A DNA stretch of 55,535 nucleotides, taken from positions 1 to 55,535 of the forward strand of contig CAZCDS010000010.1 of the NCBI GenBank assembly GCA_964497585.1, in the 5' to 3' direction. The DNA comes from an uncultured Syntrophaceae bacterium (lineage in GTDB: Bacteria > Desulfobacterota > Desulfomonilia > Desulfomonilales > Desulfomonilaceae). Made by a program: the position numbers and the translations under genes. Below, piece by piece: positions 118 to 23,655 of this stretch (position 1 is the stretch's first letter; every line of letters begins with the position of its first letter). A model generated the notes under the pieces. It had not been told where the DNA came from. It searched no databases and saw only the letters and a program-made list of their open reading frames with translations.

Positions 118-1023
118 GTGCAGCCGATGTCAAGGAGGTCCATGGTGCGAACCTTCGAGTATCTCAAACCGACGTCTCTCAAGGAGGCATTTGAACTGCT
201 GGACGAGCACGGAGAGAAAGCCAAGCTCATCGCCGGCGGAACGGACCTCATGGTCCAATGGAAGAAGAAGATCCTTTCACCGGATTACGTCATCTCATTG
301 CGGAACATTCCTGAACTCAGGATCATCGAGTTCGACGGGGGGCTCCGGATCGGGAGTGCGGCCACCCACCGGTCGCTGGAGCTTTCCGAGGAGATCCGGA
401 AGCATTTTCCGGTGATCACCGATGCGGTGAGCAAGCTGGGTTCCGTTCAGGTGCGCAATTCGGCCACCATCGGGGGGAACCTATGCAATGCGGCTCCGTC
501 CGCGGACACCGCTCCGCCGATGCTCGTCTTGGAAGCGGAGGTACACATCGCGAGTTCGAGCGGTGAAAGGACCGTGCCTCTCACTGAATTCTTCACAGGA
601 CCATCGAGGACCGTCCTGCAACACGGAGAAATCGTGACCCGGTTCTCCGTGCCCAAGCCTCTGCCGAACACGGGCATGGCCTACTGGAAGCACACCCGTC
701 GCCAGGCCATGGATCTGCCGATACTTGGCGTGGCCTCGCTCCTCTCCTTTGACGAGGACCTGAAGACCTGCACCAAGGCGAGGATCGGCCTCGGAGTGGC
801 CGCTCCCACGCCCATGCGGGCCACGGACGCGGAGGAATTTCTTCAAGGCAAAACAATTGATGAAACCACGCTCGTGGAGGCGGGAAAGATTGCAGCGGAG
901 CAAGCTTCTCCGCGTACGACGATTCGCGGGACAGAGTGGTACCGGCGAGACATGATTCGTGTCCTCGTGAAAAGAACCGGATTGATCTGTCGGGATCGGG
1001 CGAAAGGAGCCGGCGCCTCATGA
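118..1023 (+). CDS. FAD-binding medium subunit of a xanthine dehydrogenase-family molybdoenzyme (CoxM/XdhB/HcrB-like). The start is uncertain: ATG 118, or GTG 145 after AGGAGG.
   Basis: 301-aa ORF with the typical FAD-binding molybdopterin-dehydrogenase fold motifs (GGTDL, ATIGGNL). Its stop overlaps the start of the next gene, giving an M-S-L operon order. Confidence 0.8.
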   Translation: MQPMSRRSMVRTFEYLKPTSLKEAFELLDEHGEKAKLIAGGTDLMVQWKKKILSPDYVISLRNIPELRIIEFDGGLRIGSAATHRSLELSEEIRKHFPVITDAVSKLGSVQVRNSATIGGNLCNAAPSADTAPPMLVLEAEVHIASSSGERTVPLTEFFTGPSRTVLQHGEIVTRFSVPKPLPNTGMAYWKHTRRQAMDLPILGVASLLSFDEDLKTCTKARIGLGVAAPTPMRATDAEEFLQGKTIDETTLVEAGKIAAEQASPRTTIRGTEWYRRDMIRVLVKRTGLICRDRAKGAGAS

Positions 1024-1517
1024 AACGGACCATAGAGTTTGTCGTAAACGGAAATGCGGTGGTAGTGGAGGTTGAACCTCATTGGCATCTCTTGCGTGTG
1101 CTCCGTGATGAACTGGAGCTGACCGGCGCGAAGCAGGGATGCGGTGAAGGCGAATGCGGCGCGTGCACGGTACTGGTCGACGGCGCGCCGGTCAACAGTT
1201 GCATCTATCCAGTGCTCGAAGCAGAGGGCAAGGAGATACTCACCATCGAGGGGCTGGCAGCGAAGGACGGCTTGCACCCCATTCAGGAGGCCTTCCTCGA
1301 AAAGGCCGGCGTACAGTGCGGCTTCTGCACGCCGGGCATGATCATGTCGGCAAAGGCGCTCCTCGATGCGAATCCGCAGCCCGATGAAGACGAAATCAGG
1401 CACGCGCTTGCTGGGAACATGTGCCGCTGCACCGGCTACGTCCAGATAATCGAATCAATCCGACTCGCCAGCGAGTTGATGTCGGCCCGGTCCAAAGAGG
1501 CTGGCGTGAAGGAGTGA
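1020..1517 (+). CDS. [2Fe-2S] iron-sulfur small subunit of the molybdoenzyme (CoxS/XdhC-like).
   Basis: Plant-ferredoxin-like CGEGECGAC motif and a second C..C..C..C cluster (CGFCTPGM...CRCTGY). ATG at 1020 overlaps the upstream TGA. Confidence 0.85.
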   Translation: MKRTIEFVVNGNAVVVEVEPHWHLLRVLRDELELTGAKQGCGEGECGACTVLVDGAPVNSCIYPVLEAEGKEILTIEGLAAKDGLHPIQEAFLEKAGVQCGFCTPGMIMSAKALLDANPQPDEDEIRHALAGNMCRCTGYVQIIESIRLASELMSARSKEAGVKE

Positions 1518-1520
1518 GAA

Positions 1521-3902
1521 ATGACTGAACTCTTCGTAGGAAAGTCCTTTGCCAGAATGGACAAGGAAAAGGTAACCGGCAGGGCCGAGTTTATTAGCGA
1601 TATCAAGGTTCCCCGGATGCTTTACGGCAAGATTTTGTACAGCAGCCGTCCGCACGCCCGGATCAAGAGCATCGACACGTCACAGGCGGAGAAGCTTCCC
1701 GGCGTGAGAGCGGTCCTCACTGGCTTTAACACACCGGATGTCCGGGTCGGCTTCATCGGTGACCAGACACCCTTGAAGAAGGACAAGGTCAGACAATTCC
1801 GAGACGAGGTCGCGGCGGTGGCCGCGGTGGACGAAGATACCGCGGAAGAGGCGCTCGATCTCATCAAGGTTGAGTACGAGGACCTTCCCCCGGTTTTCGA
1901 TCCTATCGAGGCCATGAAAGAGGACGCGCCGCTCATCCACGAATTCGACGCTCGGGGCAAGCCCCGGCGAAACAATATACTCCCGTTGCCCTGGAAGCTC
2001 GTTGCCGGAGACGTGGAAAAGGCCCGCGCGGAATCAGCATACGTGGTCAAGGACAGCTTCACCACCCAGTGGGTCCACCAGACCTGCATGGGAACGAGCG
2101 GCTGCATCGCGGAATTCGACCTGAACGACAACCTCAACTTCACGAGTGTCACCAACGTACCCTTCGGCGGCAAGGACCGCCTGGACATGTTCCTCAAGAA
2201 CATCGGGGTCAAAGGCCGTACGCGGGTCTTCACTCCTTTCGTGGGCGGAAGTTTCGGCAGCAAGCTCGACACCGACATCTATGAGTTCATTGCGGTTCTG
2301 CTCGCCAGGGAGACCGGTCGCCCGGTGAAGATCCTCTTCACCCGACAGGAGGAATTCACCGCGAGCCCGCCGCGGCAGCCGACCATCGGAACCTGCGAAC
2401 AGGGATGCGACAAGGACGGCCAGCTCACCTTCCGCAAAATCGAGATGATCCTGGACAACGGCGCGTACACATCCTGGGGTGCGACAACGCCTTCGGTGAT
2501 GATGATTCCCGTCTCCTCGCTCTACCGGGTCGCCAATATCGATTATCGTGCCACCTGCGTGTACACCAACAACATCTACGCACAGGCCATGCGTGGCTAC
2601 GGCAATCCCCAGGCCACGTACATCGTTGAACAGTCCATGGATCAGTTGGCCTATGAGGCGGGGATCGACCCGCTGGAATTCCGTACGATCAACGCGAACG
2701 TCCCGGACGAAGTCACGCCCATGAGGCTCAAGATAACGACCTGCCCGCTCAAGGAGTGCCTCGACGAGGTGAAGCAGCGGCTCGACTGGGACGGCAAGAA
2801 GCGTGAAAAGAAGAAAGGCCGCGGGCTCGGGGTCGCCTCCTTCCTCCATGTGGGCGGCGGCGCTAGGGTGTACCTTTCCGACGCGCAGGGCGTCATCCTG
2901 CGAGTCGATGACGACGGCAAGCTCACCGTGATCACCGGCGGCACCGATCAGGGTCAGGGCTCCGAGACGATCATCCACCAGATGGCCGCAGACGCGACCG
3001 GGCTGCGTCCCGAGGATGTGACGATCTTCCTGGGAGACACGAATGTCTGTCCCTGGGACGTCGGCACCCACGCGAGTCGTCACGCATTCATGGTGGGACA
3101 TGCGCTGCTCACGGCAGGCACAGAAGTCAAAGCCAAGATCAAAGACCTTGCGGCCAAGTGGATGGCCGACATCATCGGGCGGAAACTCTCCCGAAAAGCC
3201 AAGCGGGACCCTGACTTCCAGATCCCCGAACTCGATCTGACCGTGCTCTCCGAACCGGACAATCTCGAAGTTCTCAACGGTCGCGTCTTCCTCAAAGACG
3301 ATCCGGACAATCCTCACACAGCCCTTTCCGTCGCGGAAGTCCTTCGCAAGGCGCACATGGTGGGCACGGGCCGCGGGGAAATGGTCACGGCTGAAGCCTT
3401 CTACGATCCCCCTAATGAGATGCTCGACCGGGAGGGCAAGGGGAACCTCTCCTGCTGCTACACCTTCGGCACCCACGGGGTCGAGGTCGAGGTGGACATG
3501 GAAACGGGCCAGGTGAATATCGTCAACTACGTCGCAGCTCATGACGTGGGCCGCGCGATCAATCCCATGCTCGTGAAAGGGCAGATATATGGCGCGGCCG
3601 TGATGGGCACGGGGTACGGGCTCAGCGAGGAGATCCAGGTCAGTGCGGGCCGCGTGATGAACGCGAATCTCCTCGATTACAAGATCCTCACCGCCAAAGA
3701 CAAGGTCCCCATCGAACCGGTCATCGTGGAGCCCATCGAGCCCTCGGGCCCATTCGGCGCGAAGGGGATCGGTGAACCCGCGTGCGTCCCCACCGCTCCG
3801 GCCATTGCCAACGCGGTCTATGACGCGATTGGCGTCCGGATCAAAGACCTGCCGCTCACACCGGAGAAGATCCTCGCCGCAATCAAGGAAAAGGAAGGGT
3901 AA
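1521..3902 (+). CDS. Molybdopterin-binding large subunit, xanthine dehydrogenase/aldehyde oxidase family.
   Basis: 793 aa. Translational coupling 4 nt after the S subunit. Typical length and glycine-rich motifs of CoxL/XdhA-family proteins. No form-I CODH AYXCSFR signature is seen, so a generic Mo-hydroxylase. Confidence 0.85.
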   Translation: MTELFVGKSFARMDKEKVTGRAEFISDIKVPRMLYGKILYSSRPHARIKSIDTSQAEKLPGVRAVLTGFNTPDVRVGFIGDQTPLKKDKVRQFRDEVAAVAAVDEDTAEEALDLIKVEYEDLPPVFDPIEAMKEDAPLIHEFDARGKPRRNNILPLPWKLVAGDVEKARAESAYVVKDSFTTQWVHQTCMGTSGCIAEFDLNDNLNFTSVTNVPFGGKDRLDMFLKNIGVKGRTRVFTPFVGGSFGSKLDTDIYEFIAVLLARETGRPVKILFTRQEEFTASPPRQPTIGTCEQGCDKDGQLTFRKIEMILDNGAYTSWGATTPSVMMIPVSSLYRVANIDYRATCVYTNNIYAQAMRGYGNPQATYIVEQSMDQLAYEAGIDPLEFRTINANVPDEVTPMRLKITTCPLKECLDEVKQRLDWDGKKREKKKGRGLGVASFLHVGGGARVYLSDAQGVILRVDDDGKLTVITGGTDQGQGSETIIHQMAADATGLRPEDVTIFLGDTNVCPWDVGTHASRHAFMVGHALLTAGTEVKAKIKDLAAKWMADIIGRKLSRKAKRDPDFQIPELDLTVLSEPDNLEVLNGRVFLKDDPDNPHTALSVAEVLRKAHMVGTGRGEMVTAEAFYDPPNEMLDREGKGNLSCCYTFGTHGVEVEVDMETGQVNIVNYVAAHDVGRAINPMLVKGQIYGAAVMGTGYGLSEEIQVSAGRVMNANLLDYKILTAKDKVPIEPVIVEPIEPSGPFGAKGIGEPACVPTAPAIANAVYDAIGVRIKDLPLTPEKILAAIKEKEG

Positions 3903-3985
3903 GCGTTTGCCGGGGAGGGCCGTGAGCAGAAGGGCCCTCCCCAGACTTCCATCCAAAGTCTCTATCGTTTCGCGCCCGTAGGCCC
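3881..3985 (+). repeat. Direct repeat copy 1: last ~7 codons of the Mo-subunit gene plus its terminator hairpin plus ~45 bp.
   Basis: ~85% identical to 15371..15483 (AATCAAGGAA.AG.AAGGGTAAG.GTTTGCCG.GGAGGGC...GCCCTCCCCAG.CTTC.ATCCAAAGTCTCTATCG.TTCGCGCC.GTAGCC). Confidence 0.8.
3912..3942 (+). terminator. GC-rich hairpin (10-bp stem GGGGAGGGCC/GGCCCTCCCC) immediately after the Mo-enzyme operon.
   Basis: Perfect inverted repeat 10 nt after the stop. No U-tract, so a transcript 3' stabiliser or Rho-independent-like terminator. Confidence 0.5.
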
Positions 3986-4370
3986 GGTGCCTTCGTCAAA
4001 ACCCTGCGGCCGCCACGTGGGTACATCATGTTTACGGTGAATGCCGCTGGAATCCGGATTCCCAAGGACATGGCGTGCCCTGCCCTCCCCTTCGCCACCC
4101 GGGACCCATCGCATGAGTCCGCAGAGCGAGAGACAACTATGGTGCGCCGCGAACTCTTCGCGAAATACGCGCCCAAACTCAAAGCCGCATGGTACTTCTG
4201 GAATAGAACCAGCAAACAGGCCGGTCACACCGTTTCTTCGAGACCATCAGCGGCCTCGAGGAGGGCCCCTTTCGAATATTCAACCACTTCCAGGGAATCA
4301 GCGGGACGCTCAAATCGGTCGTCCCGCACTTCGCTTGCGCGATGATGTCAGCACCGGTTACCATAGAAGG

Positions 4371-4405: not shown

Positions 4406-4554
4406 ACCAACCGCCGCTGCTGTAGAGGTATTGCGCTGACCGGTTGCAGCGGACTTTACCGAGCTTCTTGAATGTTGGTGATCCCAGTCGTGGCTCGGAG
4501 TCTCGGTTGGGGTAGACGGCCCCCTTTTGCTGAAATGTCTACCGGAGTTGAGCT

Positions 4555-7500
4555 ATGGCAAAGCAGATCAAGTCCCCCAAGTCTACTGGAGGAGGCGGAT
4601 ATCTTTTTGAAGACAAGGTGGTTGCTTACTTCCTCTGCTGCATGTTGACGGATTCGCCCCCCTTCGATCCCGAAGATGGGTCAATCACACGAATTGATTT
4701 CCAGTGTGGCCGGCTGGGTTGGCACCTAGACGATGTACTCCTGTTGTTGGAAACGTCGAATACGAAAAGAAGATGCGCAGTTTCCATCAAGAGCAATAGA
4801 CAGATCACTCAGAATGGTTTCCAACAAGAATTCATTTTGAGTTGCTGGGAGCAGTATCTTGGAGGAGAACCCTTTGAGATATCCAAGGACATGCTCTGTC
4901 TGGTTACAGCACCATTAGGTCTGGAAGTGAGAGATGCGGTCGACGAGTTGCTTCAGTGGTCACGGGTCCAGAAGCCTTCGGACCTGAAAAGAGGTTTGGA
5001 ACAGGCCGGTTCTGCGAACAGGTACCATCGGGCCGTGTTCGACAGCTGTTCCTGTCCCGAAGATCTCCGGGCAGCGCACGGTCTCACGGATGATGACATA
5101 GGCAAGCTGTTGAGTCACGTAAGGGTGCTGAAGTTCGATTTCCAATCAGATCCATCCGACTCTGTTCGAGAAGCCATCCGAATGTGCCGCAATATCCTGC
5201 GAAGTAACTCGGCGCGCGATGCGCAACTCCTCTGGGAGTGGTTATGCAGGATTGCTGCTGACAGCCGACCTCTTGCCGGCTCGTTGGTCCTTCCAAAGCT
5301 CATCGATCAACTGCGATTTGATTTCAAGCTACGCGACTTTCCCACCCATGAAGACGATTGGACGAAACTATGTGAACAGACTGGGACTAGTCTGCAAAGG
5401 ATTTCGGACACCATCGGTGGCGCGGTACGGGTGGATAGGCCAGAGGATCTGCAGCGAATCGGAGATTCTGTGCGCGCCAGCAGGATAACACTGATCGCCG
5501 GTCCCTCAGGCTGCGGCAAGACCGTACTGGCAAAGAAGTTTGCCGAATCAATTAGTGAACGAGCCACGGTGATTTGGTGGAATGCCGGACTCCTGGCACA
5601 CGGAGATTTGACATCGTTCGAGGGGAGCCGTCATCTCACCTATACCCTTAAGCAACTTCTTTCCTCCTTCACGGGCCAGGAAGCCTATCTGATCCTGGAT
5701 GGCCTGGACCGGCAATTTGATCGGGACACTTTCGCCAACCTCGCTGTCGTGATGACCACGCTGCGTCTGGGGGACAAATCAAGCCCCTGGCGAGTAGTCA
5801 TCTCCACCCAGGTGGAAGAAGTGCACAGGTTGCAGCGGGAACTCGCGCTAGCGGGTGTGAAGGCCGATCTCTTCCAGATCGTTCCCATTAAGGAGCCGAC
5901 ATGGCAAGAACTCCAGCCTGTATGGCGTGAATTCCCAGCTCTGGGTAGCCTTTCGCTCCGACCGGAACTCCATAGGCTGCTTTTAAAGCCTAAGATGTTG
6001 CAACTTTTCGCCACTAACATTGCAGACGCGCCGGTATCGGAAATATCAGGTTGGACTGGGGAATCGGACCTGATCGTCTGGTTCTGGGAGAATGTTGTAA
6101 GGAAAGGCCCTTCCGGTGCAACAAGGGACAGCTTTGTCAAGCGCCTTGCCCAAAGACAAGCGGACGAGTGTGCGTCCGAGCTTCCCGGAGACTCATTTGG
6201 CGTAGGCGAAACGGCGCCCTTGGGCGAGTTGATCTGCGACAGGATTTGCACATGCACGGACGAGAGATACACCTTCGAGCATGACCTCTTCGGAGACTGG
6301 GCAAGACAAAGGATTCTGGTCGGCAGGCAAAGCAATCTTGCCGATTATGTTGACGAGAAACTGGATTCTCCTGTGTGGCATCGTGCAGTACAACTGCTGG
6401 GGCTGCATCTCCTTGAACGAAGGTCCGTTGACGAGTGGGTCCAAGTCTGGACCAGCTTGCCACACGAAGGTGATCAGAGGGGACTGGCACAGGATCTCAT
6501 GTTGCAAGCAGTTATATTTGCCGCCAATCCACTTCCCCTGCTGGAGCAGATGTGGCCCGTTCTGAGTCAAGATGAAGGGAAGCTGCTCAATCGATTGCTC
6601 GCTGGATTTCTTCTGGTGGCCACATTTCCCAACAGGGCAATACAAGTCACATTGGCAAGCCTCTACCCGGAGTCTGCGACACACGCCAGAACACTGGAGC
6701 GGATACCCTTCGCGCTTTACTGGCCGCCAATAATCAGGTTCCTGCACAATCACAGCGATGACGTACTCAGACTGGCTCCTTTGAGGGCGGCCGAGGTAGC
6801 GGAGAAATGGCTCCAGTATTCTGAATCTGGTCTTCCGTGCAGGACAGAAGCGGCGGATTTAGCCTTGGAGCAGGCGGAGGACAGACTGGCTTCGAAGATG
6901 GTTTATTGGCGCGGTGTACCTAACGAGAAGTTGGATCGAGTGGTCTTCAAGGGAGCGCTAAAAGCTTATTCTGAGTATCCTGAGCGAACGGTGGCATTCG
7001 CCCTGACTGCCTGCGGAAGACGCCCGCCCTCGGATCGGATGAAGGCGAAGATTGAGTATCAGAGAAGGCTGAACCCGTTGCATGCCGACTCAGACTGCCT
7101 TCGAGAGCATACAGACGAGTGGGTTGAGGTATCATGGCGGCAGCGCTACCGCGATCCAGACGCGCAGCCACCGGATCCATGGCCTGATGGGCCCTCGCGC
7201 ATAGTCGACGAGGGTTTCGCAGAAACCTGCCTCACCACGGATGCGGTTCTCAGACTAGCCGCGACTGATCCTGCCGTGGCCAAAGAGATAGTCCTGGCCT
7301 GCTTGATCGAGACACCAAGTGACAGAATGGACGAACCAGAGATGGACAACCCACTTGCCAAGCTGGGCCTCAGCATGGTGGATCAAGAGTACTACCCTCC
7401 ATTTTGGACGAGGTCACCGTTTTGGCTTTTTCTGGGATTGGATCCGTCGGAAGCTGTTAATCTGATTATCCGGTTGGTGGATTTTGTCACTGAGAGATGG

Positions 7501-9837
7501 GCAAGCAAGAAGCGAGCACACAAACAGCAAGTATTCGAAATCGAGGTGACAATTCCCGGTGGCCAGCGCACTTTCGTCGGCGACAAGGAGGTTGCCTACT
7601 GGTTCACCGACTCGGGGACGGCTCCTCATTCGGTCGTCACTGCCCTGATGGCTCTGGAGAAGTGGCTCTACGATACTCTCGACAGGGAAGAATCCGTTTC
7701 GGAAGCCGTTGACCAAATCCTTGGTCGGGCGAAATCCACAGCGTTCCTAGGTTTGCTCTCCTGCGTGGGCAAGCGATACCCACAGCTCTTCCTGAAAGAA
7801 CTGCAGCCACTGTTGGCAATTCCAGAATTGTATCTGTGGGATGCGTGGCACCAAAGCCAAGGACAAGGACTTCAGATGCTTCCTTGGGGTGGGCTCAATC
7901 AGCCGGAGGTCCTTGTTCGGCTCGCTAAAGAATGGCACAGTATGGAACACCGCAGAGTGGACTTGCTCACCGTCGCATTCTACCTTCTCGTTGATGATAA
8001 AGGGACCCAGGACTTCTTTATCAGCGTCCGAGAGCAATGGCGAAATCTTTTGGAAGAGGGAGCTTGCGCCAGTGTTGGAGCCGGATTCCTCAGGCGCCTG
8101 ATTGACATCTTTGATCCTGCCAACCTGAGACAAGTCAGAGGTGCTGAAGGTGAAGTTATAGTGTACAGCGAGGGCATGCTCTCACAGTCTCCGGAATACG
8201 AGGCGGTGAAGCAAGACCTCGAGACCAAACAAATCCTACTGACCATGCCCTACCGTTGCAGACGATTACTATCAGGGGAGGATTCCCTCTCTGAGGAAGA
8301 ACTAGAGGGATTCTTGGCCCAAGTCCAGTCCATACCCTCCCTACAGATTCCGGATGCTTTTGATCTGGCATTCTTCGGCCCGGAAAACTGCGTAACTGGC
8401 GGAGCAGCTGTTCTCGTCAGGCATCACAGGGAATGGCTGAGAAAGCATCCTGATCGAGAACGATGGTGTGTGGAGCATCTCGTGGGAATAGTCTTGAATC
8501 CCCCCGGTCCATCCCCCGTGGAAAGCGAGTTGACCTACGTGGATTTACGATGGCAAGGGTTCTGCGCGCATGCTATCCCTATGCTCTGGGCGGAGCAGCC
8601 TGATTCTCGTGAACTCCGCCTATGTACGGCACGGCTTGGGACGGATGAGAAATACGACACAGTCAGAATACTCTTTGAATCAGCCGCGAGATTCAGACAG
8701 CAGCTAGGCTCGGACCTCAAACGCCTCCAGCACCTCGTTATGCGTTGGGCGGCTGCAAGGCCAATCAACACTCTCATTCAACGATCCGACTCGTCAGCAC
8801 CCAACGTACCGGGATGGCTCGATAACGAGATTGAGCAGTTCTGTCAGGGAAGCATGCTGCCGGAAGTACCGGAATGGAAGAGCATCTGCGATTCAGTGAA
8901 CGCAGCACTCCCCTATTCCAGTCCGTTTGATTGGACGGACGAGTCCAATAAAGCCTTGCGCATCGACCTTCTTCTTGTCATGGCCGCCAACGCTTGGATA
9001 CCTTCGCTCAACAAGGCATTGACTTCTGAAGAGAGAGCGGACTGGATTCATCTTTTCGAGGAAGCTCTGAACTACAGCATGGAGATCATAACCGAAATTC
9101 TCGAGGCCGGTGGAAAGTTAGGCTATGCCAACCACGAATGGTATGAATGGCTCTTTCGGCGACTCGTTAGAGTGATTCCCGAACTGAGCCAAAAGGAAAA
9201 GCCTGACCGATTCTGGAAACCCATCCTTGAATTGGGAGTCGACGGACATTACCGGATTGAGTCCTTCCTCAGTTGGTGGTTCATCGAAAATCTGCAATCA
9301 TCGCCTCCTCCTGGTCGTTTTCTTGAAGAATGGCAGAGAATGGTCGATTTTGCATTTCAGTCCCCACATTGGAGCTTCGAAGAGATCCAACACGGTTTCT
9401 ACGACCTCCAAAAGATGTGGTGCAACGTTATGGGCTTTGGTGCAGCCTGGGTGAAAATGTGGTCGGAGAACCACAGGTCCGTGATTGAGGCAATGCGGCC
9501 GAACTACCAGAAATGGGCCAAGGAATTCCTGGACAGACCGCAGTGCGGATCTTCCTTTGCCATCTTGCTGGAACAGGAAGGGGCACGAGGTCTCGTATTG
9601 GATGGATTGGTCTGGCTGGAGCAAGCCGTAGCAAAGAGGGGAGAAGGCTATTTCCGAGAAGAGAAGGTTCGGCGAATTGTTCTTTCTTGCCTAGACACTT
9701 GCTGGAGTACCGTAGGCCAGGAGATAAGAAGAAACGAAGCAGCCTTCAGTAGTCTGAAAAAGCTATTGCGTATACTGGCGGACAGACAAGAGCGGGTTGC
9801 AATAGAAATGCTGCGCACAATTGCAGAGACATGCTGA
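4555..9837 (+). CDS. Giant (1760 aa) NACHT/STAND-type P-loop NTPase with an uncharacterised ~300-aa N-terminal domain and a long helical-repeat C-terminal region. Candidate NLR-like/Avs-like defence protein.
   Basis: Walker A LIAGPSGCGKT (~nt 5497-5530) and NACHT-type Walker B LILDGLDRQFD ~60 aa downstream. C-terminal ~1200 aa is leucine/tryptophan-rich and helical. N-terminal GYLFEDKVVAYFL...EDGSITRIDF...LDDVLLLLE...AVSIKS is compatible with a divergent PD-(D/E)xK/Mrr-like fold. Confidence 0.65.
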   Translation: MAKQIKSPKSTGGGGYLFEDKVVAYFLCCMLTDSPPFDPEDGSITRIDFQCGRLGWHLDDVLLLLETSNTKRRCAVSIKSNRQITQNGFQQEFILSCWEQYLGGEPFEISKDMLCLVTAPLGLEVRDAVDELLQWSRVQKPSDLKRGLEQAGSANRYHRAVFDSCSCPEDLRAAHGLTDDDIGKLLSHVRVLKFDFQSDPSDSVREAIRMCRNILRSNSARDAQLLWEWLCRIAADSRPLAGSLVLPKLIDQLRFDFKLRDFPTHEDDWTKLCEQTGTSLQRISDTIGGAVRVDRPEDLQRIGDSVRASRITLIAGPSGCGKTVLAKKFAESISERATVIWWNAGLLAHGDLTSFEGSRHLTYTLKQLLSSFTGQEAYLILDGLDRQFDRDTFANLAVVMTTLRLGDKSSPWRVVISTQVEEVHRLQRELALAGVKADLFQIVPIKEPTWQELQPVWREFPALGSLSLRPELHRLLLKPKMLQLFATNIADAPVSEISGWTGESDLIVWFWENVVRKGPSGATRDSFVKRLAQRQADECASELPGDSFGVGETAPLGELICDRICTCTDERYTFEHDLFGDWARQRILVGRQSNLADYVDEKLDSPVWHRAVQLLGLHLLERRSVDEWVQVWTSLPHEGDQRGLAQDLMLQAVIFAANPLPLLEQMWPVLSQDEGKLLNRLLAGFLLVATFPNRAIQVTLASLYPESATHARTLERIPFALYWPPIIRFLHNHSDDVLRLAPLRAAEVAEKWLQYSESGLPCRTEAADLALEQAEDRLASKMVYWRGVPNEKLDRVVFKGALKAYSEYPERTVAFALTACGRRPPSDRMKAKIEYQRRLNPLHADSDCLREHTDEWVEVSWRQRYRDPDAQPPDPWPDGPSRIVDEGFAETCLTTDAVLRLAATDPAVAKEIVLACLIETPSDRMDEPEMDNPLAKLGLSMVDQEYYPPFWTRSPFWLFLGLDPSEAVNLIIRLVDFVTERWASKKRAHKQQVFEIEVTIPGGQRTFVGDKEVAYWFTDSGTAPHSVVTALMALEKWLYDTLDREESVSEAVDQILGRAKSTAFLGLLSCVGKRYPQLFLKELQPLLAIPELYLWDAWHQSQGQGLQMLPWGGLNQPEVLVRLAKEWHSMEHRRVDLLTVAFYLLVDDKGTQDFFISVREQWRNLLEEGACASVGAGFLRRLIDIFDPANLRQVRGAEGEVIVYSEGMLSQSPEYEAVKQDLETKQILLTMPYRCRRLLSGEDSLSEEELEGFLAQVQSIPSLQIPDAFDLAFFGPENCVTGGAAVLVRHHREWLRKHPDRERWCVEHLVGIVLNPPGPSPVESELTYVDLRWQGFCAHAIPMLWAEQPDSRELRLCTARLGTDEKYDTVRILFESAARFRQQLGSDLKRLQHLVMRWAAARPINTLIQRSDSSAPNVPGWLDNEIEQFCQGSMLPEVPEWKSICDSVNAALPYSSPFDWTDESNKALRIDLLLVMAANAWIPSLNKALTSEERADWIHLFEEALNYSMEIITEILEAGGKLGYANHEWYEWLFRRLVRVIPELSQKEKPDRFWKPILELGVDGHYRIESFLSWWFIENLQSSPPPGRFLEEWQRMVDFAFQSPHWSFEEIQHGFYDLQKMWCNVMGFGAAWVKMWSENHRSVIEAMRPNYQKWAKEFLDRPQCGSSFAILLEQEGARGLVLDGLVWLEQAVAKRGEGYFREEKVRRIVLSCLDTCWSTVGQEIRRNEAAFSSLKKLLRILADRQERVAIEMLRTIAETC

Positions 9838-9914
9838 CCATCGAGATGGAGAGCCGCTTGACAGCCGCACCGGCTTGCCTCGCCGAAACGGATGATAAGC
9901 GGTTTGACCAATTT

Positions 9915-10175
9915 GGGCTAATCCGGGATTTGCGTGAGCCCGTGAATCCGGGTAGACCATTCCTAATTCCATGTCCATATTTGCGGTCGACAATCATCAG
10001 GTCCGAACGTTCCCCAATGATTGCCGCTGTTGCACAAGTCGGTCCCCTGCCGCCGATTGACGGCGGACCGACCGAAGGCCAGCCCGTCTTGCTGCCGGCA
10101 CTCATCGCACGAGACGTCAACGGCAAAGATAGGCATGATGCACCCAACACTCCTACGCACTCCTGTCTTTTCGGA
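9915..10175 (+). repeat. Interspersed structured repeat, copy A (full length).
   Basis: Contains a 23-nt 5' unit GTGAATCCGGGTAGACCATTCCT, the core TGTCCATATTTGCGGTCGACAATCA...GGTCCGAACGTTCCCCAATGATTGCC, a conserved hairpin GTCGGTCC-CCTG-CCGCC-GATTGAC-GGCGG-A-GGACCGAC, and the tail AAGGGCGGCCCGTCTTGC.... Confidence 0.85.
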
Positions 10176-10318
10176 TCCACAGGAGCCTCCTGAAGTCGTC
10201 ATCAGAGCCAGGGTGGAAGAGGTGACGCCTCAAAAACCTGGGGCCGGATGAATTCCGGGCGCTAGTCCTCTCGTTGCCCGCCCCTAACCTTCCCATCCAT
10301 GAGCGGGATTCTCTTTCG

Positions 10319-10759
10319 CTACAGGGATAGTTCTTCCACGAGGACGACTTTCACGTCGGTTATCGTGGAGAGATTCTTGTCGTTAGTGAGCAACGCATCG
10401 CAATTACCTTGGAGCGCTGAAGCGACTTGAAAGGCGTCGGTGAGAGTCAGATTGTGGCTGGATCGAATGTCCGCAGCTATGCGCGCGGTGTCCCTTTGTA
10501 TGGGGACGAAAACGGAAGAAGGGTCGCCCCCCATAAGCTCAAGAAATGCCTCGATTACGTCAGCCCTTCCCTGTTTCATCGGCAACACGAGGCACTCAGC
10601 CAGCGTGATGGGAGATGTTACCGGTACGAGGTCGCCGGCCTCGAATCGACGGAAGACCGGTTCAAGAATCGAGCAATAGACAGGATGTCGCTCGACGAAA
10701 TAAATGACCGGCGCAGAATCCAGGAAGACGCGATGCATTCCGTTCAGAACTCCGCTCAT
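10319..10759 (-). CDS. PIN-domain toxin (VapC-like).
   Basis: 146 aa, with an N-terminal FLDSAPVIYF motif and C-terminal acidic residues typical of the VapC PIN fold. Immediately downstream of a small antitoxin-like gene. Confidence 0.7.
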   Translation of the reverse strand: MSGVLNGMHRVFLDSAPVIYFVERHPVYCSILEPVFRRFEAGDLVPVTSPITLAECLVLPMKQGRADVIEAFLELMGGDPSSVFVPIQRDTARIAADIRSSHNLTLTDAFQVASALQGNCDALLTNDKNLSTITDVKVVLVEELSL

Positions 10760-10765
10760 TACACA

Positions 10766-11017
10766 TCACCGATTGGTATCCGCAAGGCGCTTTTCATCCG
10801 ATTCTCGACGGGAGTGGGAGATGTAACCCTGAGCGTCTTCTCCGCAGGCAGGATATGACAACATGCCCATCACGTCCGACCACCTACGTGGCGGCTCAGA
10901 CCGGACAACGGTAGAAGCGCGAGCCTTTTCCGCCAGCGCGGCAATCAGGCCTAGCTGCTCTTCGGTAGTCAGCAAGTCAAGCTTTTCGATGATCTCTTCC
11001 AATATCTCGTTTTTCAT
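10766..11017 (-). CDS. Small antitoxin-like protein (addiction-module component family).
   Basis: 83 aa, MKNEILEEIIEKLDLLTTEEQLGLIAALAEKA, resembling DUF2281/TIGR02574-type antitoxins. 6-bp spacing to the vapC-like gene. Confidence 0.55.
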   Translation of the reverse strand: MKNEILEEIIEKLDLLTTEEQLGLIAALAEKARASTVVRSEPPRRWSDVMGMLSYPACGEDAQGYISHSRRESDEKRLADTNR

Positions 11018-11216: not shown

Positions 11217-11395
11217 TGTGAATCCGGGTATGAATCCGGGTACACTATACCTCATTCTGTGTCCATATTTGGGCCGACAATCGCGCGGTCCGAACGTTCC
11301 CCAATGATTGGCTCTCTTGGACAAGGCAGTCCCTTGACGCCGATTGACGGCGGACCGACCCACAAGGGCGGCCCGTCTTGCCTCCGGCGGTCTAG
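11217..11395 (+). repeat. Interspersed structured repeat, copy B (tandem 5' units, 3'-truncated).
   Basis: GTGAATCCGGGTA-TGAATCCGGGTACACTATACCT, then core TGTCCATATTTGGGCCGACAATCGCGCGGTCCGAACGTTCCCCAATGATTGG... and the GATTGACGGCGGACCGAC hairpin half. Ends after AAGGGCGGCCCGTCTTGCC. Confidence 0.85.
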
Positions 11396-15310: not shown

Positions 15311-15370
15311 GTACGCATCGGTTGTTCCGTGCGAAATCCAAACGCATCAAGCACTTTGATGAACGGACAC

Positions 15371-15483
15371 AATCAAGGAAGAGAAGGGTAAGAGTTTGCC
15401 GTGGAGGGCTTTCAGCAAAAGTGCCCTCCCCAGCCTTCTATCCAAAGTCTCTATCGCTTCGCGCCGGTAGCCCCCCGCCTGCG
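15371..15483 (+). repeat. Direct repeat copy 2 (orphan 3' end of the Mo-subunit gene plus terminator hairpin).
   Basis: Matches 3881..3985, including the codons encoding ...IKE.KG* and the GGAGGGC/GCCCTCC hairpin. No gene body upstream. Confidence 0.8.
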
Positions 15484-15630
15484 GCGAAGGCTTGCGTCCG
15501 CGACGTCGGGGACAACATACGTACCGTGAATGCTGCTGTAATCCGCCTTCGCTAGGGCACCGCGTGCCGTCTTCTCCCTTAGCGACCTTCAACCCATCGT
15601 AAGGGCTGTCAAGGCCGAGAGATAGGTATA

Positions 15631-16241
15631 GTGAACCCCGAACTACTTGAATCCGTTTTCTGCGGCCTGTATCCTGGACCGAGAAGGTGCAGTCTCGGAC
15701 AGGAGAGGAGTGCAGTATTCGTGAGAAGAATCTGCGCATGGTGCGGAAAGGACATGGGCTCGGTGGGGCCTGAAGGCGACGATCCAAAGCCGATTACCCA
15801 CACAGTATATGCGACGACTGTGCACATCACCAGCTTGCCCAGATAGGCATGAACGTGCCGGCCCTCCTTGAGGGCCTTCATTGTCCGGTGATTGTAGTAG
15901 ACTCCACTGGAATAATCGTGACCGGGAACACGAAGGCACTTGAGATGGTTAAGAAGGAGCTGTCGCAGGTTGAGGGCTACCCGGGAGGAGAGGTGTTTGA
16001 ATGCGAGCACGCAAGGCTTCCCGGTGGATGCGGTAATACGGTGCACTGCTCCGGATGCACCATAAGAAAAGCAGTGATGGAAACGCACTCAACAGGAAAG
16101 AGCCTTTTGAGAACTCCGGCCACCTTGCTCCAACACTCATCCGGAGATGCCAAGGAAATACGGCTGCTGATCTCCACGGAGAAGGTCGAGGATGTTGTGC
16201 TGCTGAGGATTGATGAGGTCAATCCGTCCGGTTCAATCTGA
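15631..16241 (+). pseudogene. Zinc-ribbon (CxWCGK...THxxCDDC) + Cys-rich PAS-like sensor protein. Probably one gene split by a frameshift near nt 15802.
   Basis: ORF 15631..15846 (frame 1) encodes ...ICAWCGKDMG...PITH. Frame 0 from 15774 continues ...SICDDCAHHQLAQIG-MNVPALLEGLHCPVIVVDSTGIIVTGNTKALEMV... to 16241. The joined product has a CxxC...CxxC ribbon followed by a PAS-like fold with CEHARLPGGCGNTVHCSGC. Confidence 0.45.
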
Positions 16242-17314: not shown

Positions 17315-17535
17315 GTGGGTGCCCAAGGGTAGCCATCATTCTGATTCTGTGTCCATATTCCCTCTCGACAATTATGCGGTCCGAGCATCCCCCAATGATT
17401 GCCTCTCTTGCACAAGTCGGTCCCATTCTGCCGACTAACCGAACACCGACGCAAGGGCGGCCCGTCTTGCACGGGCTGGCACTCATCGTATGAGCCGTCA
17501 GGCCCCAGAGACACCTATGGTGTCCCCCGAACTCG
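17315..17535 (+). repeat. Interspersed structured repeat, copy C.
   Basis: Core TGTCCATATTCCCTCTCGACAATTATGCGGTCCGAGCATCCCCCAATGATTGCC, degenerate hairpin, tail AAGGGCGGCCCGTCTTGCACGGGCTGGCACTCATCGTATGAGCCGTCAGG and the AGAGACACCTATGGTGTCCCCC motif. Confidence 0.85.
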
Positions 17536-17686: not shown

Positions 17687-19672
17687 TTATTCCGACGAGC
17701 ACGGTTCGCTCATCTCGCTCCCTGCTGTCGGGGCTTCCATGCGACTTTGAATCGTCTTGAACTGATAGAGATGCGCCAGTTGGCTTTGAGTCAGTCTTAG
17801 ACCTCGTTCCCGAAGCAACTTTGCAGTTTCTGTATGGCCGTTATGGACTGCCACCATAAGTGCCAGCTTGCCGAGGTTATTCTTGCCGGTAATTCTCGCT
17901 CCCTTGTCCAGCATGAGCCGGACCAGCTCAGTATCACCTGACTCGGCCGCCACTTCGATAGGAATGGTAAGAGGTCGGGGCACCTCTAGTCTCCCTCCGG
18001 AATAGTGCGTGACCAGGGCTTCGTTGACATCCGCTCCGTGTTCTACCAAGAGCCGCATAACTTGCAGATGGTGGCCGTCGGCAGCCGCGATCAAAGGGGT
18101 ACCATCGTACCTTGTTCCCGCTCGAACGTCGGCGCCCCTTGTCAGGAGGAATTCGACCACCTTCGCGTGACCTTTCTTTGCAGCCTCCAGTAAAGCTGAG
18201 CCGTCGCCACGGTTCCGGGGATTGATTTCCGCACCACCGTCTACGAGGATCTTAACCATTTTCAGGTCACCGCGTCGCGCGGCCTCCTTGAACGGTGTGC
18301 GTCCAAAACGCATCTCCTCGTTGGGATCGGCCCCCCGTGCCAGCAACAGTCGAGCGATCCTGTGCCTTCCGTATTGGACGGCGACAAAGAGCAGTGAACC
18401 GGTACCGCAAAACCTTTGTGCACGGTCGAGATCGCCCTACTCCTCTAGACGCCGGCGAACCTCCGCAGCATCCCCCACTGCGACGGCCCCATCGAGAGTC
18501 AGTTTGGCCCCAGCGTCTATCAGCACGTCGACCACGTCACTGTAACCAGAAAGGACGGCGATGGAAAGTGCCGTGGCGCCTTTCCAGACCGCATTGACAT
18601 CCGCTCCTCGGTCCGTGAGGAGTCTGATCGCCTTAGGGTGACCTCGACTGGCTGCGTACATGAGTACCGTCTCACCGTCCCTATTCCTGGCATTAGGGTC
18701 TGCCCCGGCCTCCAGCAGTATCTTTACGACTTCCGGCCGATTACCTTCAGCCGCGATCATGAGCGCTGTCTGTTGCCCCCACGGGTCTAACGCATTGATC
18801 TCGGCTCCCTTGCCCAGGAGCAGTCGTACGACGGCAGGATTACCTGCCCAAGCGGCGGTCATGAGAGCGGTCCAGGTCCTATAACTGTACGTCGCCGCAT
18901 TGACGTCGAGCCCTCGATCCAGAAGGAGCTTGACGACTTTCAGCCGGCCGTGTCGAACGGCCTCGTTGAAGGCGCTTTGGGTGAACTCGGCATTTCCTTT
19001 GAGGTTCTTGACGCGATCGAGAAGCAGTTTCACCACCTTCACGTGGCCGTGGCCGGCTGCCAACCTCGTAGACACTCTGATACTGGGTATGAGATCCGGG
19101 GGCACAGGTGCGTTGCCACTTCGCTCTTGCGTCTCGCCGGTCGAACCGACGGCCAAGTCCTCACTGAGAAGTCGTCGTACGGTTGCTGCGTCTCCGAGCA
19201 ACGCGGCACTGCTGAGGGTCTGTTTCGCTCCGTGGGTCAGGAGAAGCTTCACGATCTCAGTGTGCCCCTCGCCCGCAGCCACGTCTACGGCGGTCCTTCC
19301 GCGAGCAGTCACTGCACGCAAGTCTGCACCGTGATTCAAAAGCAGCTCGGTTATTTCGAGGTTCCCACGCCGAGCCGCGATCATCAAGGCCGCTGTACGA
19401 TACTTGTCCGCCTCATCCGCGTCGGCGGCCTCGCATAGCAGCCGTTTGGTGAGCCTGAGGTTCCCTTCCCTGACAGCATCCAAAAGGGGATTCCTATGCC
19501 ACCAGGGACGTGAGGTTACGTCAACACCGTGTTCTCTGTAATGAGCCTCAGCCTCCCGCGCAGGATCGGTGTCTGCAAGAACGTTGAGGGTCGGGAAGCT
19601 CGGGGCAAAACATACCAGTCCACCGATGAACACCGTCGCGGCGAACATGACGACGCGATTGCCGTGCATCAT
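17687..19672 (-). pseudogene. Secreted ankyrin-repeat protein (~660 aa) interrupted by an in-frame TAG at 18437..18439.
   Basis: ORFs 18437..19783 and 17687..18346 are in the same frame. Translation across the gap reads ...VRRRLEE*GDLDRAQRFCGTGSLLFVAVQYGRHRIARLLLARGADPNEE..., a continuous ankyrin repeat. The downstream part has no ATG of its own. N-terminus MMHGNRVVMFAATVFIGGLVCFA is a signal peptide (start 19672, RBS GGAG). Confidence 0.6.
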
Positions 19673-19741
19673 TCTTGACTCCTCTGGCGAGGCGAGTTGT
19701 CTCAAGCATTTGTCACCCTTGGGGACATCACCTCCGGCGAA

Positions 19742-19945
19742 ACCATCGTTGATTTTGAATCCATATTTGCGGCCGACAATCACGCGGTGCGAACGTTCCC
19801 CAATGATTGCCTCTCTTGGACACGTCGGTCCCTTTCTGCCGATTGACGGCGGACCGACTCAAGAGCGGCCCTCCCTCACTAGGTACAACCGTCCCATGAG
19901 CTGTCAGGCTACAGAGATGGGTATGGTGTTCCCAGGAATCTTGAA
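19742..19945 (+). repeat. Interspersed structured repeat, copy D.
   Basis: ATCCATATTTGCGGCCGACAATCACGCGGTGCGAACGTTCCCCAATGATTGCCTCTCTTGGACACGTCGGTCCC...GCCGATTGACGGCGGACCGAC..., lying between two ankyrin genes. Confidence 0.85.
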
Positions 19946-23000: not shown

Positions 23001-23219
23001 AGCAGCGAGCGGAGTGCGGCCGTTAGGGTATCGGGCATTGATATCAGATCCTCTGCTCAAGAGCCGCACAACCTCCTCCAAATGGCCTTTCGCGGCGGCT
23101 TTGATCAAGGCCCGGTCCTGGTCCGGCATCCGGTTAGACTGCCCAAGCGCCACCAGAGGCAACAGCAACGCGAAAGTCACCACCACTACCACACCGATAT
23201 GAAAGCGATTCAGGGACAC
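20019..23219 (-). CDS. Giant secreted ankyrin-repeat protein (~1066 aa, ~28 ankyrin repeats).
   Basis: Start re-assigned to GTG 23219 (GGAGG-N6-GTG), giving signal peptide VSLNRFHIGVVVVVTFALLLPLVALGQS. The 85 codons upstream in the ORF track are a read-through of the 23-nt tandem repeats (MVYPDSTGMVYPDST). The body is uninterrupted G-TPL-AA--GH---V--LL--GADVN repeats. Confidence 0.8.
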   Translation of the reverse strand: MSLNRFHIGVVVVVTFALLLPLVALGQSNRMPDQDRALIKAAAKGHLEEVVRLLSRGSDINARYPNGRTPLAAAAAGGHMAVVKLLLAKGSDVNPTAESFLAALPLSARNGHLEVVKLLLDRGADVNARGRGRSALWEAALHGHLEVVKLLLDRGANVNSDKEYATPLVNAALKGHLEIANLLLERGAEIDANPGRVPSTDALADAARTGHSAIVKLILDRRPDVISTGDSGRKALWAAADKGHLDIVKLLLARGVPMTLKVASVLGDVEEVKRQLAKMKDDKAQRVRRLGGNEALLAAAGKGHLEVVRSLLDNGVGVNAGAGPGPTTLFMDRQTPLMVAAQGGYKAVAELLLARGANVDAMFVLTPLAEASQRGHIEMVRLLLEHEADVNKGPASMVGNPLVLAAMGGHREVMKLLIDNGADVNHWACEGGTRIQSCYTALTVVAGKGDLEMVKLLVKKGARLTGENGQGGQALFQATAAGHIDVVKYLLDSGVPPKGGNRGGDSPIVLAAANGRTDMVKLLLDRADSSKKQDQSRMTALLRAMEHGHSNVVKLLKDRGVTLNVSHLAAMKDEKGLEVVLKQGADVNARDARGQTALVHAASGNHMGLVKLLLQYKADVNAKDNRGETALAIAALKGNLDMVRLLTQKGARVNVSSCHDRHTPLTDACMGRRLAMVKALIEGGADVNMAGMHGGAPLYFAIEPSLPDGNVSPEVVKLLIEKGANVNARCPNGDPLLIEALATGQEWVAKLLLDKGADINARDRHGRTPLVAVVNGATRYRTRAKGSSPKQHILQDVKFLLDNGANVNATDKKGRTALMAAARFGRNLDLVSLLVKRGADMNIVDNKGATALQDAVMYAHHEAARMLIARGADIRTRTIRGRSVLSWYAGGRSDLEMVKLLLDKGADVNVRSGLGNTPLMAAAARPGKVDIMKLLLDKGAHVNVTAKDGRTPLENAVRYGSPEKARILLERGAVMTLDVAALMGDVQQVQRLINDGADVNARAGSLGHTPLQSAAERGHLNVVKLLLDNGADINGRGRYGRTALWMARCEGQKKVAQFLRSRGATE

Positions 23220-23320
23220 AACCTGCCTCCTACTCCCAACGGATCGGTTGCCTGTTCGCGCTGACACTACCTGATGCACCAAAGTCTTCGCGTACGGAAT
23301 GCGCGTTCCCGAGTCAAGCC

Positions 23321-23412
23321 CGTGGAATGCGGGTACACCAATCCTAACTCCGTGTCCATATTTGCGGTTGACAATCACCTGGTCCGAGCGTCCCCCAATG
23401 ATTGGCCCTCTT
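23321..23412 (+). repeat. Interspersed structured repeat, copy E (5' half only).
   Basis: GTGGAATGCGGGTACACCAATCCTAACTCCGTGTCCATATTTGCGGTTGACAATCACCTGGTCCGAGCGTCCCCCAATGATTGG, then interrupted by copy F. Confidence 0.8.
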
Positions 23413-23655
23413 GTGGAATCTGGGTACACCATACCTGTGGAATCTGGGTACACCATACCTAATTCCGTGTGCATATTTCCTCTCGAGAATTACCGAGTCC
23501 GAACGTTCCTCCATGATTGCCCCTCTTGCCCACGTCGGTCCCCTGCCGCCGATTGACGGCGGACCGACGCAAGGGCGGCCCGTCTTGCACGGGCTGGCAC
23601 GCATCGTATGAGCCGTCAACGGCAGAGATAAGTATGGTCTCTCCCGAGGTTTCGA
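23413..23655 (+). repeat. Interspersed structured repeat, copy F (full length, with two perfect 23-nt 5' units).
   Basis: TGGAATCTGGGTACACCATACCTG x2, then core TGTGCATATTTCC..., the perfect hairpin GTCGGTCCCCTGCCGCCGATTGACGGCGGACCGAC, and tail AAGGGCGGCCCGTCTTGCACGGGCTGGCACGCATCGTATGAGCCGTCAACGGCAGAGATAAGTATGGTCTCTCCC. Confidence 0.85.

Follow-up and report, generated by a model that had tools for sequence, protein, structure and literature searches.

A divergent member of the Avs4 family with a predicted Cap4-type nuclease domain in an uncultured Desulfomonilaceae bacterium

What is the 1760-residue protein encoded near the start of this stretch of DNA, and is it the novel type of antiviral receptor that the initial annotation took it for? 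The window, which here means the whole 55,535 nucleotides analyzed (contig CAZCDS010000010.1), carries an ATG-started reading frame at 4555–9837 of the plus strand, stop codon included, that is open throughout and complete, confirming the gene as originally called. A Shine-Dalgarno-like GGAG, read from the sequence at 4544–4547 (+), lies 7 nt 5' of the ATG, and a scan for promoters and terminators around the gene gave nothing above chance. Public data contain a protein identical to the product (P0001), and the Logan contig SRR14802572 carries the same gene. Because there are about 75 full-length homologues (26–40% identity), and searching with an N-terminal-domain profile at E ≤ 1e-30 recovers at least 1663 cluster representatives (50% identity), the frame is no chance ORF. 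Its GC3 of 0.58, against 0.70–0.79 in the flanking metabolic genes, points to horizontal acquisition. We find that the protein is a divergent member (a subclade) of Avs4 (AVAST type 4), a known family of NLR-like sensors that bacteria use against phage. We estimate a probability of about 80% that it is a single-polypeptide antiviral STAND receptor of the Avs4 lineage, combining a Cap4-type PD-(D/E)xK nuclease, a STAND ATPase and a ~1100-aa sensor in an abortive-infection mechanism.

The layout proposed at the outset, an effector followed by a STAND NTPase and a helical-repeat sensor, is supported by domain models and profile alignments, and the ~1200 C-terminal residues described as helical are indeed predicted to be so almost wholly. 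An AF2 model of aa 561–1760 (pLDDT 87.8) matched EcAvs4 (8dgf_B) in a Foldseek search of the PDB with E=1.6e-20, TMq 0.67 and TMt 0.54 over 1261 columns, the other PDB matches having TM ≤ 0.23; the two proteins are 14% identical in the structural alignment. Model and search place a C-terminal sensor of Avs4 fold at aa ~640–1760 (6472–9834, +). Lee et al. 2026 draw the boundaries between Avs families by the structure of the sensor, and 8dgf is the sole close match of this sensor in the PDB.

The same relationship is recovered from sequence profiles. The full-length family profile matched EcAvs4 (8dgf; E=5.8e-29) through segments that follow the same order in both proteins, with aa 276–817 corresponding to EcAvs4 188–704 and aa 919–1219 to EcAvs4 765–1089; this profile alone reached EcAvs4, a single-sequence phmmer search of the PDB returning generic P-loops only. 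The NCBIfam Avs4 model (NF041815) matched aa 272–804 at E=2.3e-23, with 81.5 bits against an equivalog cut-off of 1500 bits. The PADLOC Avs4 model, which the PADLOC library returned without a curated cut-off, matched aa 909–1102 at E=4.6e-18, with ~200 of the 1570 profile positions in its best-matching stretch. Scores so far below the curated level, together with the partial PADLOC match, mark the protein as a divergent relative and not an Avs4 equivalog. Relatives that PADLOC's Avs4 model does recognize score E 1e-116 to 1e-196 on it, and hhalign aligned the family of the window protein with them at a probability of 100 (E=3.3e-114) over 1644 columns, the N-terminal domain included. Three such proteins, P0076, P0080 and P0086 (WP_068825324, Wenyingzhuangia fucanilytica), are whole-length homologues at 22–26% identity with partial coverage. 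They have the same overall length, Walker A site (~aa 312–322) and GGGGxxFE / DD / xK N-terminal domain as the window protein, but match PADLOC Avs4 end to end and carry QxK, whereas the clade of the window protein matches it partially (E ~1e-18 to 1e-25) and carries SxK. The whole-length homology bears out the suggestion of an Avs-like defense candidate; since PADLOC-Avs4 proteins also already possess this N-terminal domain, a novel type is not supported.

EcAvs4 itself resembles the window protein in being a single gene with an effector, a STAND NTPase and a ~1100-aa helical sensor, NTPase and sensor being homologous by profile, but differs in its effector, a ~170-aa Mrr-like nuclease instead of a ~285-aa Cap4-like domain. 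At this distance it is possible, with the odds against it, that the divergent clade kept the architecture and output while sensing a phage or mobile-element protein other than the portal, and so forms a distinct Avs family sharing ancestry with Avs4. Such a change of trigger is harder to reconcile with a sensor collinear with EcAvs4 and structurally unique to it over ~1260 columns, or with the end-to-end alignment to PADLOC-recognized proteins. Avs4 homologues, moreover, reportedly recognize very diverse portals by their fold. In its favor are the low identity, a TMq short of near-identity, the coverage of only parts of the protein by the PADLOC and NCBIfam models and a third, C-terminal profile segment that is not significant alone against EcAvs4. 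Similar helical sensors have also diversified to many phage proteins, and portal sensing extends to the unrelated sensor of Avs11 (Lee et al. 2026).

Between effector and sensor lies the STAND NTPase module, whose nucleotide-binding and helical domains occupy aa ~296–560 (5440–6234, +) according to the profile alignments. Both motifs quoted in the initial annotation are present. In the Walker A motif GPSGCGKT (aa 316–323; 5500–5523, +), none of G316, G319, G321 and K322 varies among 52 homologues; in the Walker B motif LILDGLDR (aa 379–386; 5689–5712, +), D382 is invariant in the same set, with G383 and D385 conserved in at least 90%. The profile alignment brings the Walker A motifs of the two proteins together and pairs the Walker B with VIVVDSAEKL of EcAvs4. 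It also pairs HDLFGDW (aa 576–582; 6280–6300, +), at the start of the modeled C-terminal part, with THDIYEEWA; H576, D581 and W582 are invariant, and we infer that this is the probable location of the winged-helix histidine motif. The label NACHT falls short in Pfam, the model (PF05729) giving 17.8 bits against a gathering threshold of 26.7 and aligning to aa 310–335 only, that is, to the P-loop. It is one of four sub-threshold Pfam matches at aa 293–407, with AAA_16, ATPase_2 and NPHP3_N, and the precomputed labels of the homologues likewise disagree (AAA_16, NACHT, ATPase_2, nSTAND1, nSTAND3 and nSTAND5). The central domain is homologous to a structurally defined STAND, that of EcAvs4, and the protein has the STAND features of Walker A and B motifs, a conserved-histidine (H576) module and a fused repeat sensor.

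For the N-terminal domain, a divergent PD-(D/E)xK/Mrr-type nuclease had been guessed and a fold comparison suggested, which we ran on the predicted structure. The fold predicted for aa 1–~285 (4555–5409, +; pLDDT 92.8) is that of a PD-(D/E)xK nuclease, with an alpha-beta-beta-beta-alpha-beta core at aa 15–118 and a helical extension at aa 123–282; the model thus contains both a restriction-endonuclease-like core and a Cap4-type helical extension. In structure it lies closest to Cap4-type nucleases, those of SeAvs3, CBASS Cap4, Lamassu LmuA and Hachiman HamA, and not to Mrr-type enzymes. The guess was right as to superfamily and wrong as to Mrr, for which there is no family match, and the domain is predicted to be a Cap4-type DNA nuclease fold.

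The N-terminal motifs listed earlier, GGGGYLFE (aa 12–19), EDGSITRID (aa 40–48), LDDVLLLLE (aa 58–66) and SIKS (aa 77–80), are all present, and three of them contain the candidate catalytic residues E19, D59/D60 and K79, which were placed from the order of secondary-structure elements and are 94–100% conserved (n=190). The acid E19 (4609–4611, +), in the GGGGxxFE motif, lies on helix alpha-1 (aa 15–31) and is glutamate in 179 of the 190. D59-D60 (4729–4734, +), the 'D' of PD-(D/E)xK, opens strand beta-2 just ahead of aa 61–66 and is kept in 189 and 190 of the 190, respectively. At the end of strand beta-3, S77-I78-K79 (4783–4791, +) occupies the (D/E/Q)xK position; here K79 is K in 182 members and R in eight, and the usual E/Q is replaced by S77, which is S in 170 members and Q in 17. 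Serine is the state of the window protein's clade, and glutamine belongs to the clade recognized by PADLOC's Avs4 model, QxK being visible in P0076–P0094. Compared with the Cap4-type effectors (CBASS Cap4, 6VM6 and 7YIB; the N-termini of SeAvs3, 8DGC, and SeAvs7; LmuA; HamA), the domain thus departs from (Q/E)xK. It is also set apart from them by a T-G-G-G-G motif ahead of helix 1 and by having no match to Pfam Cap4/DUF4297.

Sequence families place the domain less readily than structure. Pfam and NCBIfam gave zero nuclease family matches for it, the N-terminus had no match when the whole protein was searched against Pfam, and 42 such N-terminal domains searched against Pfam at E ≤ 1 hit no nuclease family, Cap4/DUF4297 and Mrr included; nor did the N-terminal profile match any PDB sequence. 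PADLOC returned weak matches alone, to DUF626_VIII (aa 8–77) and to the candidate system PDC-M54A, whose models match 11 of the 42 domains. The PDC-M54A match is collinear (aa 172–420 with profile positions 178–428 of 1657; E=2.8e-10) and confined to ~250 residues that take in the last part of the N-terminal domain together with the P-loop region, and it probably reflects a shared domain type, not membership. To our knowledge, no active Cap4 nuclease of the SxK type has been described. The serine found in 170 of 190 members, with the 17 glutamines falling in the PADLOC-Avs4-recognized clade, and the failure of every nuclease HMM to match would suit a module that is altered or inactive and serves for DNA binding, scaffolding or, via SxK, another chemistry such as nicking or an RNA substrate. 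We consider this unlikely. It is a rather doubtful, though less remote, proposition that the SxK clade forms an Avs family of its own, very large and as yet unannotated, with a diverged trigger, a non-canonical Ser-x-Lys Cap4 site of altered chemistry, or both.

A protein of this architecture could also serve signaling or regulation outside defense, in the manner of MalT-type or cyclase-linked STANDs. The gene is flanked by metabolic operons, many STAND clades are unrelated to defense, and a cyclase-AAA_16-TPR STAND (46738–50106) is encoded in the same window. Against this, the protein has no DNA-binding or signaling output domain, and its output is a nuclease fold common to CBASS, Lamassu, Hachiman and Avs effectors. 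Its relatives exchange the N-terminus for death-type effectors, namely CHAT (2.5e-25), PNP_UDP_1 (2.9e-15), EAD10 (2.3e-19) and, in P0002, a trypsin-like domain (PF13365), an effector modularity typical of Avs proteins. The family is spread patchily over more than a dozen bacterial lineages, some archaea (methanogenic) and plasmids; the single protein used as query found no relative among GTDB representative genomes, whereas the narrower family alignment did. With atypical base composition and homology to an experimentally proven defense protein in addition, a role outside defense is very improbable. Across 38 related loci there is no conserved partner or downstream gene, and the neighbors, in a survey made without a background set, include integrases, transposases, TIR, AbiEi, type I R-M, BrxL and other STANDs.

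For the reading that we prefer, an Avs4-lineage receptor, homology with EcAvs4, SeAvs3 and SeAvs7 suggests a mechanism covering trigger, oligomeric state, DNase activity and defense phenotype. In an uninfected cell, the monomer would be held in an autoinhibited state. During infection, the sensor would bind a conserved phage structural protein, most likely the portal protein, since this is what Avs4 senses; given the remote similarity to characterized Avs4 (14% identity; 81.5 against 1500 bits), retained portal specificity would be an extrapolation. Binding would open the ATP-bound NTPase and lead to oligomerization, probably as a tetramer, in keeping with the tetramerization of Cap4 and Mrr domains upon target binding in Avs3, Avs4 and Avs7 (PMC13581612; bioRxiv 10.64898/2026.08.25.746987). 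The Cap4-like domains may thereby be united into active dimers that would cleave double-stranded DNA irrespective of sequence; the result would be death or arrest of the infected cell and an end to phage spread.

The gene is thus an ordinary kind of defense gene missed by current annotation pipelines. It represents no new kind of system, but a large and widespread branch of the Avs4 lineage that lies far under the curated Avs4 threshold and whose members public records list as 'hypothetical protein', 'AAA family ATPase' or 'ATP-binding protein'. With such labels and sub-threshold scores, censuses of defense systems in environmental bacteria and archaea probably undercount this branch. The SxK clade is a naturally occurring case of Ser in place of Gln/Glu at the Cap4 nuclease site, and with so distant an Avs4 sensor one could probe the reach of fold-based portal recognition.

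The initial annotation placed the gene in a defense island bounded by direct repeats, next to a VapBC-like pair and followed by a mobile-looking repeat. A repeat does occur at 9937–10137, directly after the gene, with five further copies in the window. A 120-aa ORF at 9831–10193, which overlaps the stop codon, is mostly made up of this dispersed repeat and has no family match; as there is also no conserved downstream gene in the 38 related loci, we dismissed it as a partner. The VapBC-like pair was half verified: a PIN-domain gene is present at 10319–10759 (-), but the adjoining 83-aa ORF at 10766–11017 (-) has no family match.

Direct repeats do exist at 3880–4155 and 15370–15644, 11.49 kb apart; they are 75% identical across 278 nt, rising to 87% in a 92-nt core. 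The island reading is weak: the genes of the 11.5-kb block are for the most part metabolic (SGL lactonase, TPP enzyme, CMD), with no integrase among them, and each bounding repeat terminates in a ~55-nt module, spotted by eye and not picked up by blastn-short, that also closes the dispersed repeat family, whose six copies lie at other places in the window. We therefore rejected the block as an integrated island. The immediate neighbors of the gene are metabolic genes and the PIN gene, with no dense defense island. A tRNA and Rfam search of the window returned no matches. Well downstream, at 46738–50106, the window encodes the second STAND protein, of cyclase-AAA_16-TPR architecture.

A single unbroken ORF at 4555–9837 (+), with an ATG start and GGAG 7 nt before it, encodes a protein of 1760 aa, and an identical protein is present in public data. 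All six motifs quoted in the initial annotation were found in its translation: GGGGYLFE (aa 12–19), EDGSITRID (aa 40–48), LDDVLLLLE (aa 58–66), SIKS (aa 77–80), Walker A GPSGCGKT (aa 316–323), and Walker B LILDGLDR (aa 379–386). Approximately 75 full-length homologues share 26–40% identity with it, and at E<=1e-3 an N-terminal-domain profile search returned 4315 cluster representatives (50% identity), of which 1663 remained at E<=1e-30; nearly all of the top 150 were proteins of 1700–1800 aa with the same architecture, or fragments of such proteins. The ORF is a real gene under selection.

In Pfam, the P-loop of the NTPase matched AAA_16, ATPase_2, NPHP3_N, and NACHT, all below threshold, and the NACHT label proposed previously is not upheld at 17.8 bits vs a cut-off of 26.7. 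The NCBIfam Avs4 model matched aa 272–804 (E=2.3e-23; 81.5 bits vs a 1500-bit equivalog cut-off) and the PADLOC Avs4 model aa 909–1102 (E=4.6e-18). The sole non-generic match of a 52-member family profile to solved proteins was the portal-sensing antiviral STAND EcAvs4 (PDB 8dgf; E=5.8e-29), with collinear segments 276–817 to 188–704 and 919–1219 to 765–1089 and a third collinear but weak segment (1488–1733 to 1339–1577); Walker A, Walker B, and the invariant H576-D..DW motif each align with the equivalent EcAvs4 element. Residues 561–1760 were modelled with AlphaFold2 (pLDDT 87.8) as helical repeats almost throughout, and Foldseek against the PDB matched this model to EcAvs4 alone (E=1.6e-20, TMq 0.67, 1261 columns), other matches being generic solenoids with TM <= 0.23. 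As the portal is the Avs4 trigger, it is also our best guess for this protein; we rate it at about even or somewhat better because identity to EcAvs4 is just 14% in the Foldseek alignment, and sensing of a different trigger is the less probable reading.

Among the more distant homologues, P0086 (Wenyingzhuangia), P0076, and P0080 have this N-terminal domain in common with the 1760-aa protein (as GGGGxxFE/DD/QxK) and are matched over their full length by the PADLOC Avs4 model (E 1e-116 to 1e-196). Profile–profile alignment of this group with the family of the 1760-aa protein (probability 100, E=3.3e-114) runs from the first nuclease helix to the C-terminus, 1644 columns in all, which places the protein in a sister clade that has diverged from the recognised Avs4 proteins. 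The pairing of an Avs4 sensor with this Cap4-like domain is already present within what current tools call Avs4.

The N-terminal domain (aa 1–297) was unassigned in Pfam, NCBIfam, and PDB-sequence searches with the protein and 41 diverse homologues. AlphaFold2 on the 42-sequence alignment (pLDDT 92.8, pTM 0.86) predicts helix 15–31, strands 43–49, 61–66, and 71–78, helix 91–102, and strand 113–118, followed by a helical extension (aa 123–282); in the model this order reproduces the alpha-beta-beta-beta-alpha-beta core seen in PD-(D/E)xK nucleases. From secondary-structure order we infer that the E...D...(E/Q)xK positions correspond to E19 in helix 1, D59-D60 where strand 2 begins, and S77-x-K79 where strand 3 ends. 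Of 190 family members, 179 have E19, 189 D59, all D60, and 182 K79 (R in the other 8), supporting maintenance of the nuclease site. Position 77 is S in 170/190 and Q in 17/190, the latter in the more distant relatives P0076–P0094; judged from the alignment, the serine is an unusual, clade-wide feature where Gln/Glu would be expected. An altered or inactive SxK nuclease, for which this serine would speak, seems unlikely. The PADLOC model DUF626_VIII weakly matched 12/42 N-terminal domains (best E=7e-5), covering aa 8–77 of the present protein with its GGGG..FE..DD..K core, which suggests that a further catalogued defence component shares this nuclease core.

Bacterial relatives belong to Deltaproteobacteria, Nitrospirota, Cyanobacteria, Bacteroidota, Actinomycetota (Micromonospora), Myxococcota, Planctomycetota, Gemmatimonadota, Armatimonadota, Paraburkholderia, Bdellovibrio, and Salinibacter, archaeal ones to Methanoregula and Methanolinea; plasmid-borne relatives occur in Geminocystis, Burkholderia, Aromatoleum, and Paraburkholderia, and none was found in phage records. 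Modular effector exchange is a hallmark of Avs proteins, and some relatives keep the NTPase and sensor with the N-terminus exchanged for a CHAT protease (E=2.5e-25), a PNP_UDP_1 nucleosidase-like domain (E=2.9e-15), the adaptor EAD10 (E=2.3e-19), or, in homologue P0002, a trypsin-like protease (PF13365). In the cyanobacterial loci L005, L015, and L051, EAD10 forms the first 64 aa, implying that a separately encoded effector may be recruited; at the Nostocales loci L006, L008, and L012 the N-terminus is just 41 aa, w/o family assignment. The 150 ORFs nearest the gene at 38 loci included no conserved partner. Raw counts, with no background set, were HTH regulators 5, phage integrases 4, rve transposases 3, TIR 3, the MADS components mad2 3 and mad3 2, two each of D5_N primases, AbiEi, HSDR_N, and NACHT, and one each of BrxL, nSTAND1, N6 methylase, and HipA. 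This pattern would fit a stand-alone, mobile defence gene; that the protein is a STAND serving some purpose other than defence we consider very improbable.

We favor an Avs4-lineage antiviral STAND with nuclease output (probability roughly 0.8). In Avs3, Avs4, and Avs7, the Cap4 or Mrr domains assemble as a C2-symmetric tetramer that contains two active dimers, and toxicity and defence are lost when the nuclease is inactivated (PMC13581612; bioRxiv 10.64898/2026.08.25.746987). By homology, the sensor would bind a conserved phage protein, at best guess the portal, the ATP-bound STAND module would open and oligomerise, the Cap4-like domains would assemble into active dimers inside a tetramer, and DNA would be degraded, aborting infection. 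The initial annotation had proposed a candidate novel defence protein; the protein stays wholly within the Avs framework as known, where we place it in a divergent subclade. The clade is large and widespread, fails curated Avs4 thresholds, and its members are named 'hypothetical protein', 'AAA family ATPase', or 'ATP-binding protein' in public records.

The gene lies downstream of a CoxM/S/L-type molybdenum hydroxylase operon (118–3902) and is followed by a PIN-domain (VapC-like) gene (10319–10759, -), whose upstream neighbour on the same strand, an 83-aa ORF (10766–11017, -) and putative antitoxin gene, has no Pfam or NCBIfam family match. Farther downstream are an SGL-type lactonase, a TPP enzyme, and a CMD-family gene, then three ankyrin-repeat proteins and a HEPN/MntA-like pair. 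GC3 is 0.58 in the Avs-like gene, 0.62 in the PIN gene, and 0.58 in the HEPN gene vs 0.70–0.79 in metabolic neighbours, supporting horizontal acquisition of the Avs-like gene itself. The HEPN gene (23691–24092, -) overlaps the MntA-like nucleotidyltransferase gene (24079–24423, -), probably as a type VII HEPN/MNT toxin–antitoxin pair, which shares the low GC3. Four ankyrin-repeat proteins (17687–18346, 18437–19783, 20019–23474, and 38334–39689, all -; 219, 448, 1151, and 451 aa) lie in a 22-kb stretch, which is unusual in a free-living bacterium; the last has a sub-threshold NAGPA-like (phosphodiester glycosidase) match (21.6 bits vs 25). A second STAND-type protein (46738–50106, +; 1122 aa; unusually high GC, 0.65) combines a double zinc ribbon, class III adenylate/guanylate cyclase, AAA_16 NTPase, and MalT-type TPR.

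The gene had been placed in an 11.4-kb block bounded by direct repeats. These repeats are real (3880–4155 vs 15370–15644; 75% over 278 nt), but a delimited island was set aside: there is no integrase, the contents are mostly metabolic, and the ~55-nt end module, recognised by eye and not detected by blastn-short, also closes a dispersed family of which the window contains six more copies (9937–10137, 11231–11388, 17327–17530, 19750–19933, 23317–23413, and 23440–23647; module also at ~4105–4160 and ~15593–15648). The family is non-coding, in one orientation, ~100–200 nt long and 75–86% identical, with no conserved ORF or Rfam match, an internal hairpin (GTCGGTCC..CCGCCG-ATTGA-CGGCGG-ACCGAC), and the 3' module, seen by eye only, CATCGTATGAG..GTCA..CAGAGATA.GTATGGTG..CCCGAAC. 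One copy is directly 3' of the Avs-like gene and several sit at 5' ends of oppositely oriented ankyrin genes. The repeat pairs 9943->11231 and 11507->12794, with no detectable similarity to each other, have near-equal copy-to-copy offsets (1288 vs 1287 nt), which may be chance. The latter pair (11507–11718/12794–13006; 213 nt, 92% identical) lies directly upstream of the adjacent SGL lactonase (start 11727) and TPP enzyme (start 13041), contains a sigma-54-like TGGCAG-N5-TTGT element and a GCGGAGGGC/GCCCTCCGC palindrome, and may represent a regulatory region that was duplicated; the gene at 27801–29177 (-) encodes a sigma-54 activator.
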